Shown here: positions 1,021 through 7,433 of the stretch, piece after piece
Layout of the letters: every line of letters starts with the position of its first letter
How positions within the stretch are numbered: position 1 is the first letter of the stretch
Notes under the pieces: generated by a model
What the model was told of the DNA's origin: nothing
Databases searched by the model: none
The model's input: the letters and a program-made list of their open reading frames with translations, nothing else
Program-made: the position numbers and the translations under genes
DNA from: a virus
Taxonomy: Duplodnaviria; Heunggongvirae; Uroviricota; Caudoviricetes
Reading direction: 5' to 3' (one strand)
IMG/VR virus record: IMGVR_UViG_2703718785_000025
DNA: 10,444 nucleotides

Positions 1021-1240
1021 TGTTCAGCGCCTCAAAATCGGGTTCAGCAGAAACCAGTTCAGATGTTTTTGGCATCGTTGTCAGACCGTGTGGAATATCC
1101 CTGCGGAGAACTATGGGTTCGTTTTTAGGGCCGATTACAAATGGGATGCCGTGCAGTCTTAACTGGTGTTGCTGTTTTGTGTATCGCTCGTATTTCGTGA
1201 TCTCTTTAATCTCTGCTGGAGATAGAGTTAATTCGTACAT
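998..1240 (-). CDS. xis: Excisionase (lambda Xis-like)
   Basis: 80-aa product MYELTLSPAEIKE...NGKTKKK; the MY-LTL start and lysine-rich C-terminal tail resemble lambda Xis. ATG at 1238..1240 with AAAGG upstream. The longer 126-aa frame (to 1378) would overlap the exonuclease gene and was not used. Overlaps the int start by 23 nt. Confidence 0.7.
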   Translation of the reverse strand: MYELTLSPAEIKEITKYERYTKQQHQLRLHGIPFVIGPKNEPIVLRRDIPHGLTTMPKTSELVSAEPDFEALNNGKTKKK

Positions 1241-1307
1241 GTGGTCACGTGCCTTTACAGCATGACCGCCGCCACTATAGCTGGTGGGCGGCGATATGGG
1301 TTGAACA

Positions 1308-2749
1308 TCAAAAATCAGCCTGACTCGGGAGCAGTTTTTGCCAGATGGCTGAAACGTATTTCGCCTGGTAACGTGCATCGTTCAGAGCGTTATGGCGTTC
1401 ACCTTCGAATGGAATAGTCGTTCTTGCGTCGAAATCCATCACCAGTCCCAGAGCAACCATCGTTCTTACATCGCGATCATTGGTGTAACGCCACGGGCAG
1501 GGGATCCCCTGCCGTTCATATGAACGGCGTAAAATCACGTTGTCGAAAGTTGCACCGTTACCCCAGACCTGAACAAAAAATTCACCGGAGTTTTCGTCGA
1601 TAAATTCCCGTAATTGCAGCAGTGCATCATCTAACGGGATTTCATCGGTAAGAATGGCGGATTGCGCTTCGCGTGACTGTTTCAGCCACCACTTAATGGT
1701 GTCCCGATCAATGACTCCGCCAGCAGTTTCCAGATCGATAGTTTTGCTGAATTCTGGCCCCATCTCTCCGGTTTGCGGATCGAAAAATATTGCACCTATT
1801 GAGATAATCGGGGCATCAGGATTTTTTCCCATGGTTTCAAGGTCGATCATCAGATGAATCCCCGCTCTGCTGGTGGATGTGAGATTATGATGACCGTTCG
1901 CCTTAATTAAGGGATCTGACGCCTCGCCAGTTTCACTATCGCTGGCATGATGCTGATTGCCGCCAGTGTTCTCCTTGTGCTGATGCGCAGTGCCTTCCAT
2001 TTCCTCCGGATCATTTTCCTGAACTTCAGGCTGATTCTCTTCATCGAATATTTCCTGGTATGTTGCGTCACTTATCACCGCACCACAATCAGGGCAGCTA
2101 CCGCCGCCGGTCTGACCGCAGGCGGTGCAGGCTTTTTCCGGCTCCTGTTTCGTTTCTGGCTCGTTTTGTTGCGCATTTGGGCTGTTTTGTTCCGTTTTCT
2201 GGTCGTTCTGTTCCGATTCTTGCTGGTTCTGGTTCACAGAATCGCAGGTTTCAATCCCCTTCACCCATTTCGGATCATTCGGATCGCTAATCCCTTCAAC
2301 AAATTCACCACGTGATGCAGCAAGCAATTTATCGGCGTCAGGCTGGCTGATATTGGCTGCCTGCATAATTTTGTTTACTTCGTCAGCGGTAACTTTTACC
2401 GGCTCCGGTTGTACGGAATCTTCAGCGGTATCCACATTTTGCGGTAAGTCCGTGTATGTTCCGTTTTTGCGGGCAAGATATTCTTCTTTCGTGATTTCAG
2501 TAGCCCCGGCAGCCAGTGCCTTATCCAGACCAGAAAGTTTGTTTGCGCGACCGTATTTTTCGCCATCCTTGTCGGTGAAGAGGAAGTAGAACGGCCCCTC
2601 ACGCTCTACAGATGGTTCGACTTCCACTTTGCATTCGGTTTTTTCGTTGTCCGGAATTGCCGTTTCCACTGCATCAGTTTCTGGTACTGGCGACGAGAGA
2701 GTATCAGTTGCGCTCTGATTTGTTCCTTCATCTTCAAACACGCCCTTTG
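1308..2749 (-). CDS. Prophage exonuclease, C-terminal portion: Q/N/E-rich linker, CxxC-x9-CxxC zinc-ribbon motif and DEDDh (DnaQ-like) 3'-5' exonuclease domain; 5' end runs into the assembly gap
   Basis: Frame is open from the stop at 1308..1310 up to the first N at 2750. Exo motifs are visible in the translation: DLETMG (Exo I), WGNGATFDNVIL (Exo II), HNALNDARYQ (Exo III, H-x4-D). CTACGQTGGGSCPDCG gives the zinc-ribbon motif. The M at 2741 in the ORF track is a GTG and not the true start. Confidence 0.8.
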
Positions 2750-2850
2750 NNNNNNNNNNNNNNNNNNNNNNNNNNNNNNNNNNNNNNNNNNNNNNNNNNN
2801 NNNNNNNNNNNNNNNNNNNNNNNNNNNNNNNNNNNNNNNNNNNNNNNNNN
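2750..2850. other. Assembly or scaffold gap (101 N), true length unknown
   Basis: Uninterrupted run of n characters; coding frames on both sides are open into it. Confidence 0.97.
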
Positions 2851-3547
2851 TGATTTTTCCTGTTGAATTTTCAGTGTGCTGTTGATTGGCTCTGGCGCGG
2901 GCGAGATCAACAACAGACGTGTATTTTCCGGTTTCCTTGCGTTCACCTTCGCGACGTTTTTTCCAGATGCGCATCTCTGCCTGAATTTCGGGCCATTTGG
3001 CACCTGGCTTACATTTATGCTTAACCCACCCGATGGCATGCAGCTTAAGCTCCGGATACATGGCGTTAACTTCTGGCATTTTCATCAACGCTTCAACGAT
3101 ATGTCCGTCGAATGTTGCCATGTCTTCCTGCAACAGTTCCTGCGCGCTAATCACCATATCAACGGTGATGTTTTCACATGTGTCGAACTTAACCATGACA
3201 GCGTTCTGTACTTCAGGGGCCAGCTTGTCAAAAGTGACGTTTATCGGATCTGATTCAGTCTCAACCGGGACAAAGGAAGCAGACTCCTCATCCCAGCGGT
3301 TTTCCTGCATATATTCAGCATCCCAGGAATCGAGGGCAGGGCGGGGAATACCGGGTTTATCCTCGCAAACAAGAAATTTATAAGCGCAGTCCTGAGCAGC
3401 CGGATAATGTTCCAGGAATTGCCAGTGAAATTTTGCGCGGGCGCGACGTTCATCACCGGCTTCAATGGCAGTGGCTACAGCGACTGCACCTTCTTCCTTT
3501 ATTGCCTGTTCGTCCGGAATGGCGGCGCAAATAAAGACTTTACTCAT
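2851..3547 (-). CDS. Prophage exonuclease, N-terminal portion (probably the same gene as 1308..2749; proteins of this kind are often annotated exodeoxyribonuclease VIII-like)
   Basis: ATG at 3545..3547 with GAGGT about 8 nt upstream. 232 codons (MSKVFICAAIPDEQ...NSTGKI) are open to the gap edge. The apparent frame shift on the far side of the gap is expected if the gap length is arbitrary. Confidence 0.7.
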
Positions 3548-3641
3548 TTTGTTTTACCTCATTACAGATTTCAGGGTGAACGAATCCCTGCCATTGCTGG
3601 CATTTTTAATCCGTTGGTATGGTGTTAATATGGCTGGAGGG

Positions 3642-3809
3642 TTATCCAGCCGGTGTTTCGTTATTCAGGTACAGCGATACTTTTTTTACCGGGAGGCATT
3701 CACCAGAAATTTTTTGCTCGTCTCTTGCCTGGAGGCAGGATTCTTTACTGGCATAAATTCCGGTAATCACATTCTGTGATTCACCCGTTATAAGAAAAAC
3801 CGTCATCAT
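3642..3809 (-). CDS. Hypothetical small protein (55 aa)
   Basis: Hand translation of the minus strand gives MMTVFLITGESQNVITGIYASKESCLQARDEQKISGECLPVKKVSLYLNNETPAG. It sits 17 nt downstream of the 3827..4015 gene in operon-like spacing. No Shine-Dalgarno seen, and it is below the ORF-track length cutoff. Confidence 0.25.
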   Translation of the reverse strand: MMTVFLITGESQNVITGIYASKESCLQARDEQKISGECLPVKKVSLYLNNETPAG

Positions 3810-3826
3810 CAGTGCAAATGCTGAAG

Positions 3827-4015
3827 TTATTGACGTTCTCCGAAAATACCAAGTTCAAGAAGAGCAATTCGGGAAAGTATGGAATTATCATTGAGCAGAT
3901 AAGGCTCATATTTCCTCATATTAATGGCATCTTCAGTAAACTCCCGGTTACTGAGCAGAACACCAATATCAAAACAACCTTCAGACGTATTAACGTTTGG
4001 TAATAACGTTTCCAT
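3827..4015 (-). CDS. Hypothetical small protein (62 aa)
   Basis: Internal ATG at 4013..4015 of the 97-aa track ORF, with GAGGA 7 nt upstream. Product METLLPNVNTSEGCFDIGVLL...GIFGERQ. No family recognised. Confidence 0.45.
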   Translation of the reverse strand: METLLPNVNTSEGCFDIGVLLSNREFTEDAINMRKYEPYLLNDNSILSRIALLELGIFGERQ

Positions 4016-4032
4016 TATCGCGTCCTCAACAA

Positions 4033-4180
4033 TGAATTTTGTGATGCGGTGCCTGGTGCCTCCAGGTGACGTTAACCAGTTAACAATTAACGCCGGATAC
4101 AGAGAATCCACCCATAACACTGTTTTTGGTTTTAACTGTTCCGCGTGCGCTGAGCCGCATTCACCGCATCACAAAATTCA
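4033..4180. repeat. Perfect 19-bp inverted repeat flanking 110 bp
   Basis: TGAATTTTGTGATGCGGTG at 4033..4051 and its exact reverse complement CACCGCATCACAAAATTCA at 4162..4180. The left arm lies just upstream of the RBS of the 3827..4015 gene. The enclosed segment contains GTTAACCAGTTAAC (4071..4084). Confidence 0.7.
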
Positions 4181-4583
4181 CTTTAAAAAGGGCGGCAGAG
4201 CAGCCACGGAGTAAAACTGATACCGCCAAACGTCACCAGAAAATTGATAACAGAGGGCGTTGCAGCGGGGTTGTCACTTAAGCGTATGGTCAACCTGACA
4301 ACCCGGTGTCCTCAACTGGGGAAGGAATAACCCCGCCATACTTACCGCCGCGCCATTTCGCGGATTGCCACAACCGGAAGCGCACGGTCGACGAAAATTT
4401 AACGACAGGCTATCTATGAACCAGCTACCTCGCCGTGCGCTTTCGCGTTATGGTCTGACTTTTCAGGGAAATATCCTTTCAGTAAACTGTCAGTGCCGGA
4501 TGCTCACCCGTGTCCGGCGCACGCACTCCACCTCACCCGTGGAGAACTCCTTAATTACCAACCTTAGCTTCGTTGGTTAGCTA

Positions 4584-4802
4584 TTAACGCGGGTATGTAA
4601 TCATTCTGGCAATGCTTAATGCCGCTGCTTTTTCCAGATTGGTGATATCCTGCTCCAGAGCGGACAGATTTTCAGCCTGCTTAGCCCTGGCTTCATTGGC
4701 CCATTTCAGGTCCTGCGCTGCCTTAATTTTCTGGTGCATCCACTCATAAAGTTCATCATCGGTATAGTCTGGCGCGATGATGACGGGTTCTCGTTTCTGC
4801 AT
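4584..4802 (-). CDS. Hypothetical small protein (72 aa)
   Basis: ATG at 4800..4802 preceded by a strong AAGGAG 5 nt upstream. Product MQKREPVIIAPDYTDDELYEWMHQKIKAAQDLKWANEARAKQAENLSALEQDITNLEKAAA... No family recognised. Confidence 0.55.
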   Translation of the reverse strand: MQKREPVIIAPDYTDDELYEWMHQKIKAAQDLKWANEARAKQAENLSALEQDITNLEKAAALSIARMITYPR

Positions 4803-4894
4803 GTCGGCTCCTTGTGGTTAGCGCTGCCTGCTTTTAACCACGTCAGGCGAGGTGGTATCCTCTGAGGGGTCTGTTACTCGAGAGGAAATTGGTT

Positions 4895-5095
4895 ATGAAT
4901 ACAATCAAGTTTTCTTGCCCAGAATGTGGTGGCGAAGTCTTTGACACATCCTTTAAACCGCATGGCTCTGACAGTTTCGCGGGAGCCATCTGCAAAAATT
5001 GTGGTCACCTTGTAACTGAAGATGAGTCCTCGCAGTTTGATGACGAAATCGTTGACAATATCTTCGGTGCACTCACCAGAGACTTTCTGAAGTAA
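4895..5095 (+). CDS. Small zinc-ribbon protein (66 aa), CPEC...CKNC
   Basis: ATG at 4895 with GAGG in AGAGGAAA 7 to 8 nt upstream; the track start at 4889 is TTG. Two CxxC pairs (CPECGG and CKNCGH) spaced 21 residues apart, with an acidic C-terminal tail. Confidence 0.5.
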   Translation: MNTIKFSCPECGGEVFDTSFKPHGSDSFAGAICKNCGHLVTEDESSQFDDEIVDNIFGALTRDFLK

Positions 5096-5473
5096 AGGCG
5101 CATACCGCTTAGTTACCGCTCTGATAATTCTTACCTGTCCGGCAATGGCGCTGATATCAATATAAAGCGCCATCGCTGTTTCTTTGCTGATCCCTGGATG
5201 CCTTCCATTCTGATGTTTGACTTCGCCCACTGAGAAATCCTCTGTTTCCCCTTAACGCCGGGGTAGCGGAACAAAAAACCTGCTGCATAGTTAAACGTAA
5301 TCCCCGCCGTCATGTTCATACGCCTCAGGCTGGCTACTTAACCCCTGACCACTGCCGGGTAACTCGAAGTATTGCCCTGCGTTCTGTGGGGCGGGGTGGG
5401 TTTATGGATACAATTTACAAATTAAAATTTAACTGGTCAACATGTTTATTATTAAATTTGTAATTGCGGGCTG

Positions 5474-5502
5474 TTGCATCAGTCCCAAAATGGGACTACT
5501 AT
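5474..5502 (+). promoter_or_regulatory. Putative higBA promoter with operator-like inverted repeat
   Basis: -35-like TTGCAT (5474..5479), 17-bp spacer, -10-like TACTAT (5497..5502). The spacer holds a 7-bp inverted repeat AGTCCCA-aaa-TGGGACT (5481..5497). The predicted transcript start is within a few nt of the higB ATG at 5509 (little or no leader, no SD seen). Confidence 0.4.
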
Positions 5503-5508
5503 ACAGTT

Positions 5509-5811
5509 ATGAAGATTATCTCAGTTAAAACACTCAGGGATTTTTGGGCGGAGAATCCTGATGCAGAACAACCGCTAAGGGCATGGGTGGATGAGGCGGC
5601 AAAAGCTGACTGGAAAAGCCCAGCAGACATTAAGGCACAATACCGAACGGCCAGTATATTGAAAAACCGGCGCGTGGTATTCAACATAAAAGGTAATCAT
5701 TACCGTTTAATTGTTGCAATTGCGTATCAGCGAGGATGGGTATTTGTTAAATTCATCGGAAACCACAAGGAATACGATGCTATTGATGCTGATACCATCG
5801 AACTGGAGTAA
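5509..5811 (+). CDS. higB: Type II toxin, HigB family (RelE/ParE superfamily)
   Basis: 100-aa product MKIISVKTLRDFWAENP...FNIKGNHYRLIVAIAY...GNHKEYDAID, resembling E. coli HigB as recalled from memory. Toxin is upstream of antitoxin, the reversed order typical of HigBA. The track start at 5464 adds 15 residues with no support. Confidence 0.85.
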   Translation: MKIISVKTLRDFWAENPDAEQPLRAWVDEAAKADWKSPADIKAQYRTASILKNRRVVFNIKGNHYRLIVAIAYQRGWVFVKFIGNHKEYDAIDADTIELE

Positions 5812-5813
5812 GC

Positions 5814-6173
5814 ATGAACATCAAACCTATTCGTACAGAGCAAGATTATGAAGCCGCGTTGCGTGCTGTTGAACCCATGTTCGACAATGAGCCCGAAATT
5901 GACACGCCTGAGGGGGATTTTTTTGAGGTGATGTGTTTGCTAATAGAGGAATATGAAAAAAAACATTATCCCATTGAGCCACCATCCCCAATTGAAGCTA
6001 TAAGATTTCGCATGGAACAGCAGGGGCTGACTGTGAAAGATTTGGAACCCGCAATTGGGAAAAAAAATCGGGTTTATGAGGTGTTGAATGGTACCAGAAG
6101 CCTTACGTTACCAATGATTCGCCGTCTTCATAATCAATTTGGTATCCCCCTGGAAAGCCTGGTTGGATTATAA
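5814..6173 (+). CDS. higA: Type II antitoxin, HigA family (XRE-type HTH at the C-terminus)
   Basis: 119 aa; ATG is 2 nt after the higB stop with GGAG 5 nt upstream. C-terminal HTH region LTVKDLEPAIGKKNRVYEVLNGTRSLTLPMIRRLHNQFGIP resembles HigA. Confidence 0.85.
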   Translation: MNIKPIRTEQDYEAALRAVEPMFDNEPEIDTPEGDFFEVMCLLIEEYEKKHYPIEPPSPIEAIRFRMEQQGLTVKDLEPAIGKKNRVYEVLNGTRSLTLPMIRRLHNQFGIPLESLVGL

Positions 6174-6189
6174 AATCTGCTAGTCATTT

Positions 6190-6238
6190 GCCTGATGCTC
6201 GTTCCAGAAAAGGAATGCATCAGGCAGTTTTGTTTTTC
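6190..6238 (+). terminator. Putative rho-independent terminator after higA
   Basis: Stem GCCTGATGC (6190..6198) pairs with GCATCAGGC (6217..6225), followed by GTTTTGTTTTT. The stem overlaps the stop codon of the convergent repressor gene. Confidence 0.5.
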
Positions 6239-6612
6239 TGCCGCAGTAACTCTTCAAGTTTCCGTTTATAGAAATCGCGTTTTTGCTCCATATCACGAAT
6301 GATCTGCTCTGCGTCGCTTTGAGGTAACTCATCTAAAAGCGATATGATTTTTCGTTGTTGTTCTGTAAGTTGCGGTTGGTTGTCATTACTGGATACAGCC
6401 ATTTTATCGCCGAGAGTTTCTTCTTCCATAAAGAACCAATGGACGGGATGTTGTGAGAGCTCTGCTAATTTTTCCAGTTTATCCATTCTTGGCATCACGC
6501 CTTTCAACCAACCTTGCACGGATTGGGGTTTTACACCAAGACGTCTTCCCAGCTCTGACTGGTTTATATTCAATTCCTGCAACACCTGCTGAAGGCGTTT
6601 TACAAAGATCAT
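6220..6612 (-). CDS. Prophage repressor, HTH XRE/cI-type, RacR-like, with no S24 peptidase domain
   Basis: ATG at 6610..6612 with GAGGGG upstream; the track start at 6618 is GTG. 130 aa: MIFVKRLQQVLQELNINQSELGRRLGVKPQSVQGWLKG..., with a C-terminal charged, coiled-coil-like tail. Divergent from the Cro-like gene. Confidence 0.8.
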   Translation of the reverse strand: MIFVKRLQQVLQELNINQSELGRRLGVKPQSVQGWLKGVMPRMDKLEKLAELSQHPVHWFFMEEETLGDKMAVSSNDNQPQLTEQQRKIISLLDELPQSDAEQIIRDMEQKRDFYKRKLEELLRQKNKTA

Positions 6613-6667
6613 CACCACCCCTCGTAAACTAGTTCCGCGATCCTACAGAAAAAATTGATAAGTGGCA

Positions 6668-6706
6668 TTACAAATAGAAGTTGAAATTTAAATTTAAATT
6701 TGTAAT
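6668..6706. promoter_or_regulatory. Operator-like inverted repeat in the divergent repressor/Cro-like promoter region
   Basis: ATTACAAAT (6668..6676) and ATTTGTAAT (6698..6706) form a perfect 9-bp inverted repeat 21 bp apart. Three tandem AAATTT units lie between them (6685..6702). Rightward -35-like TTGAAA at 6681..6686 and -10-like AATTAT at 6704..6709. Confidence 0.5.
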
Positions 6707-6738
6707 TATCGGTGTCATCGTAAAGTTCGGAGGGAAAC

Positions 6739-6999
6739 ATGCAAAAAAGTACTCAAGTGAAAATCCTGTCAATAATGAGCCAATCAGAATTAGGGCGTCG
6801 TCTTGGTAAAACACCGCAAACCATAAGTGGGTGGTTTAAAAAACGAGTGCCAGCGGAGGAGGTTATACCAGCATGTGAGGCGCTTGACTGGGGAGTAACT
6901 CCGCATGAATTGCGCCCTGATAAATACCCTAATCCAACCGATGGTTTACCTGTTGAGTATCAGGCTAACGCACAAGCAGCGGCGGGAGTTGATTCATGA
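6739..6999 (+). CDS. Cro-like HTH protein (YdaS-like)
   Basis: 86 aa; GGAGGG 3 to 8 nt upstream of the ATG. HTH SQSELGRRLGKTPQTISGWFKK is nearly identical to the repressor recognition region. The ...PAEEVIPACEAL...ELRPD region recalls Rac YdaS. Stop overlaps the next start (ATGA). Confidence 0.8.
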   Translation: MQKSTQVKILSIMSQSELGRRLGKTPQTISGWFKKRVPAEEVIPACEALDWGVTPHELRPDKYPNPTDGLPVEYQANAQAAAGVDS

Positions 7000-7433
7000 A
7001 AATCAAGCATGAGCACATCCGCATGGCGATGAATGCGTGGCTGCTTTATCCGAGGGTAGGGCGCAAAAAAATCGCTGATGATATAGCGACAGCATATTTT
7101 GAGCTTGAAATGACTTATCCACCAATGCATGACACCTCTACGACAGAGGGTATTGGATTGAACATACAAAATATTTTTCGCTGGCTTGAAAAGGATACGC
7201 CTGATGCTGTTGAAAAAATTCAGGCACTAATTCCAGCTATCCTGACTGTTCTTCCGCGTGAACTGCGTTATCACCTCAGTATTTTTGACACTGTTGAGCG
7301 CCGTGCATTACTGGCGGCCCAGGAAGCGTTGAGCACGGCAATTGATGCGCATGATGATGCAGTCCAGGCAGTTTACCGGAAAGCGTATTTCAGCGACGGC
7401 GGGTCATCCGGCGAGTCTGTTGTGGTGCATTGA
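6996..7433 (+). CDS. ydaT: YdaT-like protein (Rac prophage YdaT family, CII-analog or toxin)
   Basis: 145 aa: MKIKHEHI...KIQALIPAILTVLPRELRYHLSIFDTVERRALLAAQEALSTAIDAHDDAVQAVYRKA... matches my recollection of E. coli YdaT. GGGAG 7 nt upstream of the ATG. Confidence 0.8.
   Translation: MKIKHEHIRMAMNAWLLYPRVGRKKIADDIATAYFELEMTYPPMHDTSTTEGIGLNIQNIFRWLEKDTPDAVEKIQALIPAILTVLPRELRYHLSIFDTVERRALLAAQEALSTAIDAHDDAVQAVYRKAYFSDGGSSGESVVVH

Follow-up and report, generated by a model that had tools for sequence, protein, structure and literature searches.

A lambdoid early-left stretch as a dicBF unit, with a conserved RNA domain 5′ of DicF

What does a prophage encode in an early-left stretch in which few genes can be recognised? 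The question is raised by positions 3548-5100 of a stretch of 10,444 nucleotides (hereafter the window) from the IMG/VR virus record IMGVR_UViG_2703718785_000025 (Caudoviricetes). The region, which the initial annotation correctly placed in the early-left position between an exonuclease gene and the immunity region, had been described as a gene-poor accessory stretch with three small leftward open reading frames (ORFs), one rightward zinc-ribbon ORF and a gap of about 570 bp, its products matching no recognised family. Judged from its sequence, the region is a leftward early operon of the type transcribed from the phage promoter PL, namely the one that is named dicBF (ydfABC-dicF-dicB-ydfDE) in the cryptic prophage Qin of Escherichia coli K-12. 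We are highly confident that the stretch is this well-studied and already known unit, and that it makes up the promoter-distal core of an early-left operon of the lambdoid type.

Identity and order of the parts

The gap between the 62-aa and the 72-aa genes (lengths in amino acids, aa) measures 568 bp (4016-4583), in agreement with the length first given. The accompanying claim that it contains no ORF of 60 aa or more does not hold, since such ORFs exist with GTG or TTG starts, none of them credible as a gene (Table 1). Nor is the gap a gene-free spacer: it holds the small RNA (sRNA) DicF, with conserved structured RNA on either side. The match of DicF to its Rfam family, RF00039, reaches 75 bits (E 1.6e-15), where the gathering score is 48, and a terminator-like site at 4207-4192 falls within it. 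Searches of the gap against Rfam at E<=5 returned DicF, a sub-threshold match to STnc100 and a chance match to tsr32, and nothing else. The gap is RNA-coding, and what had seemed gene-poor is, as RNA, the most information-dense part of the region.

The leftward ORFs reported for the stretch, of 55 aa (3642-3809), 62 aa (3827-4015) and 72 aa (4584-4802), are all present in the ORF list, as is the rightward CxxC...CxxC zinc-ribbon ORF (4889/4895-5095). Contrary to the statement that no product matches a family, profile searches assign DicB, a DUF1482/YdfD protein and a zinc protein of the ECs_2282 family, and the 72-aa product is 97% identical to K-12 YdfC. DicB reaches 125.5 bits against PF05358 (cutoff 27) and 114.2 bits against NF049927 (cutoff 100), over residues 1-62. 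The 62-aa ORF is the ATG-start part of a 97-aa GTG ORF, 3827-4120 on the minus strand; this longer form of dicB was rejected, as the family profiles match its residues 36-97 only.

In an alignment with K-12 Qin, ydfC, dicF, dicB and ydfD are colinear and the overall identity is 92%; the stretch is a named unit rather than a set of unrecognisable accessory genes. Identity is about 97-98% from ydfC to the middle of dicB, and nearly all mismatches lie 3′ of that point. The spacer between ydfC and dicF is 342 nt here and 341 nt in K-12, owing to a single 1-nt insertion or deletion, the spacer between dicF and dicB is 174 nt in both, and dicB and ydfD overlap by 4 nt, as they do in K-12. As very few positions differ between ydfC and roughly codon 17 of dicB, the non-coding stretch is conserved to the same degree as the genes. 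The locus occupies the same place in both prophages, with the immunity region on one side and a RecE-type exonuclease gene on the other. The two differ upstream of ydfC, where Qin carries ydfA and ydfB; neither of these is present between PL and ydfC here, according to the ORF list and the RefSeq annotation, and a leftward ORF of 99 or 118 aa, with the zinc-ribbon ORF antisense to it, is found instead. They differ also in that the present prophage has a Rac-like immunity region (YdaS/YdaT), with HigBA between the repressor and PL.

One further ORF, of 54 aa on the plus strand (4416-4580), is annotated as WP_001331716.1 in some RefSeq genomes and not in others. It was rejected as probably spurious, because it belongs to no family, its annotation is inconsistent, and it lies antisense in the ydfC-dicF spacer, which is about 98% identical to that of K-12.

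Megablast of positions 3400-5500 found full-length matches of 100% identity in many chromosomes of enterohaemorrhagic E. coli (EHEC), such as E. coli O26:H11 str. 11368 (NC_013361.1 1223992-1226092), and partial matches in 4768 of 5426 complete E. coli genomes, at a median of two places per genome. The RefSeq genes of the matching O26:H11 stretch are, from left to right, integrase (frameshifted), DUF4224, exonuclease, DUF1482 family protein, dicB, ydfC, ECs_2282 family zinc-binding protein, HigB, HigA, a helix-turn-helix (HTH) repressor, a transcriptional regulator, YdaT and replication genes. In phage records that contain this block, names such as 'cell division inhibition protein', 'ydfC' and 'DicF antisense sRNA' are in use.

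In K-12, transcription of the operon starts at dicBp, which resembles PL and is repressed by DicA (PMC10448788); a further source on its mechanism is PMC9438474. Two accounts (PMC10448788; PMC5069750) describe DicB as inhibiting division through MinC and as blocking phages that inject via ManYZ, and DicF as a repressor of ftsZ, manX, xylR and pykA. The earlier guess that the small proteins of this stretch serve host takeover or exclusion was thus right in kind for the studied K-12 homologues, DicB and DicF; the parts themselves are not novel.

The operon position is shared with the early-left region of phage lambda, and in both a division inhibitor is encoded there. According to two papers (PMC3961180; PMC5069750), DicB acts on FtsZ assembly via MinC and ZipA, and Kil via ZipA. 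DicB is an analogue of Kil in function and is not homologous to it. Homology to lambda early proteins had been named as one finding that would refute the earlier reading, and none was seen: scans of the ORFs in 3548-5320 against Pfam, NCBIfam and PHROGs at E<=0.01 gave no match to lambda Kil, CIII, Ral, SieB or N. Unlike lambda, the present operon has no N-like ORF and no canonical boxA, and an sRNA gene is embedded in it. The PADLOC defence models gave no meaningful match among the ORFs, a sequence search of solved structures returned nothing useful for the product of the 99-aa ORF, YdfC or DicB, and a 62-aa ORF at 5131-5319 has a weak partial PHROG match only.

Several observations weigh against the assignment to dicBF. 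The C-terminal half of DicB is unlike that of the studied K-12 protein; the ancestral ydfD start codon (3830-3828), which overlaps the dicB stop, is ATA; and DicF carries one substitution relative to K-12, A to G, in the hairpin. The proposed promoter and operators are at consensus level, and promoter-like sites were no more numerous in the scan than shuffled sequence would give. Regulation may differ from that in K-12, because both ydfA and ydfB are missing and the repressor shares only 22% identity with DicA. Expression and activity in this strain are predictions from its sequence and from K-12.

Table 1. Features of the early-left stretch, in coordinates of the window
Feature	Coordinates	Strand	Evidence or remark
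ydfD/DUF1482 homologue	3642-3830	-	PF07358, 56 bits; 44% identical to K-12 YdfD
dicB, 62 aa, predicted cell-division inhibitor	3827-4015	-	PF05358, NF049927; RefSeq WP_000449175.1
ORF of at least 60 aa touching the gap	3827-4120	-	GTG/TTG start; not credible as a gene
ORF of at least 60 aa touching the gap	3924-4214	+	GTG/TTG start; not credible as a gene
ORF of at least 60 aa touching the gap	4365-4580	+	GTG/TTG start; not credible as a gene
dicB leader	4016-4189	-	Fold -73.2 kcal/mol, z = -5.8
DicF sRNA (seed and intrinsic terminator)	4190-4241	-	Rfam RF00039, model positions 1-52, full length
AU-rich linker, 17 nt	4258-4242	-	Where, by analogy with K-12, RNase E would have to cut
Structured RNA domain, about 116 nt	4259-4374	-	64 distinct IMG/VR sequences
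Domain, outer helix	4374-4367 with 4266-4259		
Domain, hairpin	4363-4359 with 4352-4348		
Domain, hairpin	4304-4296 with 4276-4268		
Domain, variable hairpin	~4337-4315		
Domain, pseudoknot	4341-4336 with 4289-4284		Loop to junction
Long imperfect stem, ydfC 3′ untranslated region	4369-4453	-	Minimum-free-energy fold
Small hairpin after the ydfC stop	4575-4555	-	
ydfC, 72 aa	4584-4802	-	70/72 identical (97%) to K-12 YdfC; PHROG 1744, 134 bits; RefSeq 'protein YdfC'
First operon ORF	4874-5230	-	GTG 5230 (Shine-Dalgarno GAGGA) gives 118 aa, ATG 5173 gives 99 aa
Zinc-ribbon ORF, 66 aa, CPEC...CxNC	4895-5095	+	ECs_2282 family
Leader hairpin ACCCCGGCGUUAAGGGGAAA	5245-5264	-	Common to the K-12 dicBp leader, just upstream of ydfA
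Predicted PL/dicBp-like promoter and operators	5411-5466	-	-35 TTGACC 5440-5435, 17-nt spacer, -10 TAAATT 5417-5412

The antisense reading frames and the control region

The count of only three leftward ORFs has to be corrected, as a fourth (4874-5230) runs antisense over the whole of the zinc-ribbon ORF. It matches PHROG 21318 with 222 bits and has homologues that are 58-99% identical, and the zinc-ribbon ORF scores 57.4 bits against NF047912 (cutoff 37). The latter lies wholly inside the former, and the codons of the two are exactly antiparallel. RefSeq annotates only the zinc ORF and the records of PPompW phages only the leftward one; the pipelines never call both.

Are both frames genes? 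We give slightly less than an even chance to the view that one strand of 4874-5230 codes and that the other ORF is its shadow. The antiparallel phase pits stop codons against the rare codons TTA, CTA and TCA, and shadow ORFs arise more readily in this codon phase than in any other. The pair is found in two contexts, after PL and after cro, and in each of them the leftward ORF always runs in the direction of its operon. Its product was modelled with AlphaFold2 at a mean predicted local distance difference test score (pLDDT) of 79.5 and a predicted template modelling score (pTM) of 0.65, with the topology alpha-alpha-beta-beta-alpha, and structure comparison gave no significant fold match for this model; the zinc-ribbon model, in contrast, has a pLDDT of 53 and is too low in confidence to be used. 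The homologues, however, argue against a shadow. In the 81 nt where the leftward ORF codes alone, differences number 114, 100 and 188 at its positions 1, 2 and 3. In the overlap they number 226, 103 and 311 at positions 1, 2 and 3 of the plus frame, 311 being the count at the third position of the plus frame and 226 that at the third position of the minus frame, with the plus frame the better conserved. The third-position excess switches strand, from minus outside the overlap (188 vs 114) to plus within it (311 vs 226). Homologues of the zinc ORF always have 66 codons and a conserved Shine-Dalgarno sequence, and they keep this length, the Shine-Dalgarno sequence and the ATG even past the end of the leftward ORF. 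Three of its four cysteines (C8, C11 and C36) are invariant in nine sequences, and C33 is found in eight, being lost only in P0002. The leftward ORF, for its part, has homologues of 93-99 aa with a conserved start, and both frames are open in homologues of 60-70% identity from Citrobacter, Klebsiella and Enterobacter; over four genera, the two frames are conserved in a manner like that of coding sequence. Judging from these comparisons, both antisense ORFs may be real, and they form a candidate for dual coding.

Upstream of the pair, the promoter-like site is flanked and overlapped by the putative operator half-sites CAATTACAAATT and AATTTGTAAATTG, and the ATTACAAAT/ATTTGTAAT motif around it recurs in the intergenic region between the repressor and cro, at 6667-6707 (pairs I2/D2). 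A function as promoter and operators is what these sequence features suggest. The palindromic operators stand immediately upstream of higB, a gene that they might serve as well. The immunity region (6220-7433) is Rac-like, with a repressor of the DicA/RacR type, a YdaS-like protein at the position of cro, and then YdaT. The repressor (6220-6612) is short and has HTH_3 as its one domain, a protease domain being absent, and its 22% identity to DicA extends over a full-length alignment. The prophage is a clear mosaic, in which a Rac-like immunity region is joined to Qin-like early-left genes.

Three observations on the surroundings may be added. The leader hairpin, ACCCCGGCGUUAAGGGG, is kept between this prophage (5245-5264, minus strand) and K-12 (locus L002, ~2975-2998), although the genes that follow differ. 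The toxin-antitoxin pair HigB/HigA (5509-6173, plus strand) lies between the PL-like promoter and the repressor, in the position of lambda rexAB, and is transcribed opposite to the repressor. Finally, a masked run of 101 N at 2750-2850, inside the exonuclease gene, splits what is a single coding sequence in RefSeq (2451 bp, 1097-3547) into two apparent ORFs, 1308-2741 and 2606-3547.

The dicB and ydfD genes

Is the unit still a working one? It could be a partly decayed dicBF copy, in which the ydfD start has been lost, the DicB C-terminus has been replaced, toxic functions are attenuated and the operon is carried as silent cargo. We consider this rather unlikely. Overall, DicB is 63% identical to K-12 DicB (BLASTP), its N-terminal third being near-identical and its C-terminal half divergent, as decay would have it. 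The neighbouring integrase, moreover, is marked as frameshifted in RefSeq. The start of ydfD points the same way: in a census of 47 junctions, ATG was found in 36, GTG in 8 and ATA in 3, and all three ATA cases are this same sequence. A full-length product of 62-63 aa from an ATG or GTG at the dicB stop cannot be read here. RefSeq still annotates a 62-aa product from the ATA codon, and the next ATG (3809) gives a product of 55 aa and has no Shine-Dalgarno sequence. K-12 YdfD is a lysis protein that binds IspG, and the deletion of one to five N-terminal residues already weakens lysis (PMC8835842). Against decay, on the other hand, stand the dicB ORF, which is intact and above the curated cutoffs over its full length, as well as DicF and all the RNA structures, which are intact too. 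The DicB allele, WP_000449175.1, is in addition conserved across many EHEC genomes. The reading of the stretch as an established dicBF unit is the one that we retain.

The divergence has a sharp edge. Within dicB, about 17 codons that are near-identical to K-12 are followed by sharp divergence (3827-3965, minus strand), and everything to the left is divergent likewise; this pattern suggests a recombination breakpoint inside dicB.

The RNA elements of the gap and their significance

In K-12, an RNase III cut at +813/814 creates the 5′ end of a 190-nt DicF species, and RNase E then yields the 53-nt form (PMC10448788). The 3′ end of K-12 DicF is set by the intrinsic terminator or, in readthrough transcripts, by an RNase III cut that leaves a 72-nt species (PMC5069750), and most transcripts stop at the DicF terminator (PMC10448788). 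By analogy, the long stem in the ydfC 3′ untranslated region is probably an RNase III substrate. When the K-12 cut is mapped via the alignment of the two loci (A1), the 5′ end of the 190-nt precursor would lie at about 4380; the precursor would consist of the RNA domain plus DicF.

Beyond DicF, the dicB leader contains a 20-bp long-range stem (4181-4162 with 4051-4032), which encloses a multibranch fold and ends shortly before the dicB Shine-Dalgarno sequence (GAGG, ~4026-4023). The leader of lambda N has an RNase III site, comparable to the long stem that stands here directly upstream of the first downstream gene. The dicB leader stem is probably the RNase III site that would give the 3′ end of the 72-nt DicF, if stem and species are linked as the K-12 work suggests. 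An end-to-end alignment can also be made between the leader and the 206-nt model of STnc100 (RF02076), with the common core GGUGAAU...CACCUGGAGGCACCAGGCACC; its 37.7 bits (E 3e-6) stay below the gathering score of 47, a resemblance short of established membership. STnc100/PasD is a prophage sRNA family, and STnc100 marks Stx-phage-like prophages (bioRxiv 10.64898/2026.05.13.724894). The dicB leader differs from it in being a 5′ untranslated region that runs into the dicB start codon.

An insertion occurs in this part of the operon in PPompW/Stx2a phages (L003, LC567822.1, 2118-3318). It is about 630 bp long, brings two added ORFs (78 aa and 135 aa) and lies about 20 nt past the ydfC stop, 5′ of the conserved RNA region, at the equivalent of ~4563.

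The least-described element of the stretch is the RNA domain 5′ of DicF. An exact-pattern scan of IMG/VR found it at 120 or more loci, from which 64 distinct sequences entered an alignment (A3). The structure, including the pseudoknot, was built by hand, and RNAalifold on A3 gave a partly different, nested structure. In the 64 sequences, 97.5% of cells are paired and five pairs show changes in both partners; this degree of pairing was not equalled in any of 500 shuffles, and slid partners were paired at 28-56%. More compensatory changes are seen in distant copies (Izhakiella, Citrobacter, Erwinia), for instance GGGUAACCA/UGGUUACCC in Izhakiella. The thermodynamic stability of the domain alone is unremarkable (z = 0.2), and it has no Rfam match at E<=5. 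Its conservation may already have been described in the earlier DicF literature (Faubladier and Bouche 1994).

To judge from these and more distant copies, the gap is modular. In blastn searches for distant relatives, the 124 nt just upstream of DicF recur, unaccompanied by DicF itself, at about 89% identity in Stx2c phages, cdtI, Ayreon and 2H10; in P1 and SJ46 the identity is 79%. A looser scan of one genome per species placed the domain in Escherichia, Shigella, Citrobacter, Trabulsiella, Erwinia and Izhakiella, amid about 30 chance matches. The sequence 3′ of the domain falls into ten clusters with differing 'seed' segments and terminator hairpins, DicF accounting for 82 of 121 copies. A hairpin with a T-run follows within about 50-140 nt of the domain in all of 82 distinct downstream sequences.

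Two known systems can be compared with the domain. The 'dicF-like region' of P1 (NC_005856 68791-68892), in the leader of the ban operon, contains the same domain, with 79% identity over 98 nt. There, too, an intrinsic terminator follows the domain and a repressor-controlled promoter lies just upstream; the segment after the domain, however, is unrelated to the DicF seed, and next come tRNA genes and ban instead of dicB. The put RNA of HK022 offers an analogy only: it is likewise a structured RNA after an early promoter and before terminators, in phages without an annotated N. It is about 70 nt long with two stem-loops, is present in copies after PL and PR, and acts on the zinc-binding domain of the RNA polymerase beta′ subunit (PMC9378689), whereas the present domain measures about 116 nt, folds into four helices with a pseudoknot, is present in one copy and shares no sequence similarity with put.

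The domain might be a cis regulator of the ensuing terminator, either an antiterminator of the put or nut type or an attenuator, which would set how much transcription reaches dicB and the early genes. The constant presence of a hairpin and T-run after the domain is consistent with this. So is its placement: in Ayreon and cdtI, for which no N gene is annotated, it lies about 300 nt after PL/cI and before all early-left genes, and in P1 about 100 nt after the C1-controlled ban promoter. A boxA-like UGCUCU(C/U)U stands 6 nt upstream of it in the copies of the cdtI, Trabulsiella and Erwinia types, and the invariant loops and pseudoknot suggest a specific binding partner. We nevertheless think this role quite unlikely. 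The domain does not resemble the two-stem put RNA (PMC9378689); the boxA-like motif is degenerate here (GUGCGCUUCC), and YGCTCTTW occurs nowhere in the window; each phage has one copy, and none follows PR; and in K-12 most transcripts do end at the DicF terminator. A scaffold for processing by RNases III and E, or a stabilising role, explains the same data. The combined proposal that the domain is an RNA family of its own, absent from Rfam, that it serves either terminator control in cis or as a platform for the biogenesis of prophage sRNAs, and that the antisense ORFs are a true pair is a tentative one, which as a whole we hold to be doubtful.

For the dicBF unit itself, we infer processing, regulation and phenotypes from the work on K-12. 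Leftward transcription would begin at a repressor-controlled PL-like promoter near 5412-5440 and pass through the 99/118-aa ORF and ydfC into a long untranslated region. RNase III would cut at the base of the long stem and release a precursor of about 190 nt, made up of the 116-nt domain and DicF, from which RNase E, cutting in the AU-rich linker, would produce a 53-nt DicF that terminates, at the 3′ end, in an intrinsic terminator of its own. Polymerases that read through would go on to transcribe the strongly folded leader, with its probable second RNase III site, dicB, the ydfD homologue and the exonuclease gene. Upon derepression, DicF with Hfq would repress ftsZ, manX and other mRNAs, while DicB with MinC would block septation and, by inhibiting ManYZ, would exclude phages that use this route.

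Very improbable, finally, is the view that the stretch holds novel, family-less accessory proteins (morons) of the host-takeover or exclusion type with a non-functional spacer between them: although YdfC, the product of the 99/118-aa ORF and the zinc-ribbon protein are without known function and no PADLOC defence model matches, each ORF belongs to an existing named family, the spacer consists of DicF and conserved structured RNA, and the block is the K-12 dicBF operon, the view being refuted for dicB, dicF and ydfD by their family membership.

Taken together, these data identify a textbook prophage locus that is already known, and the finding as such is ordinary; more work might be rewarding only on the RNA domain 5′ of DicF and on the antisense pair. 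The loss of the ydfD start and the divergent DicB tail may be signs that toxic genes have been attenuated in EHEC lineages with several copies of dicBF. More generally, ORF-free early-left gaps in the prophages of enterobacteria should be screened for DicF-type RNA before they are called empty. A conserved domain, invariably followed by a terminator and joined to exchangeable seeds, suggests that these prophage sRNAs form a modular system, and the same domain suggests a possible control of early-left readthrough that is independent of N.

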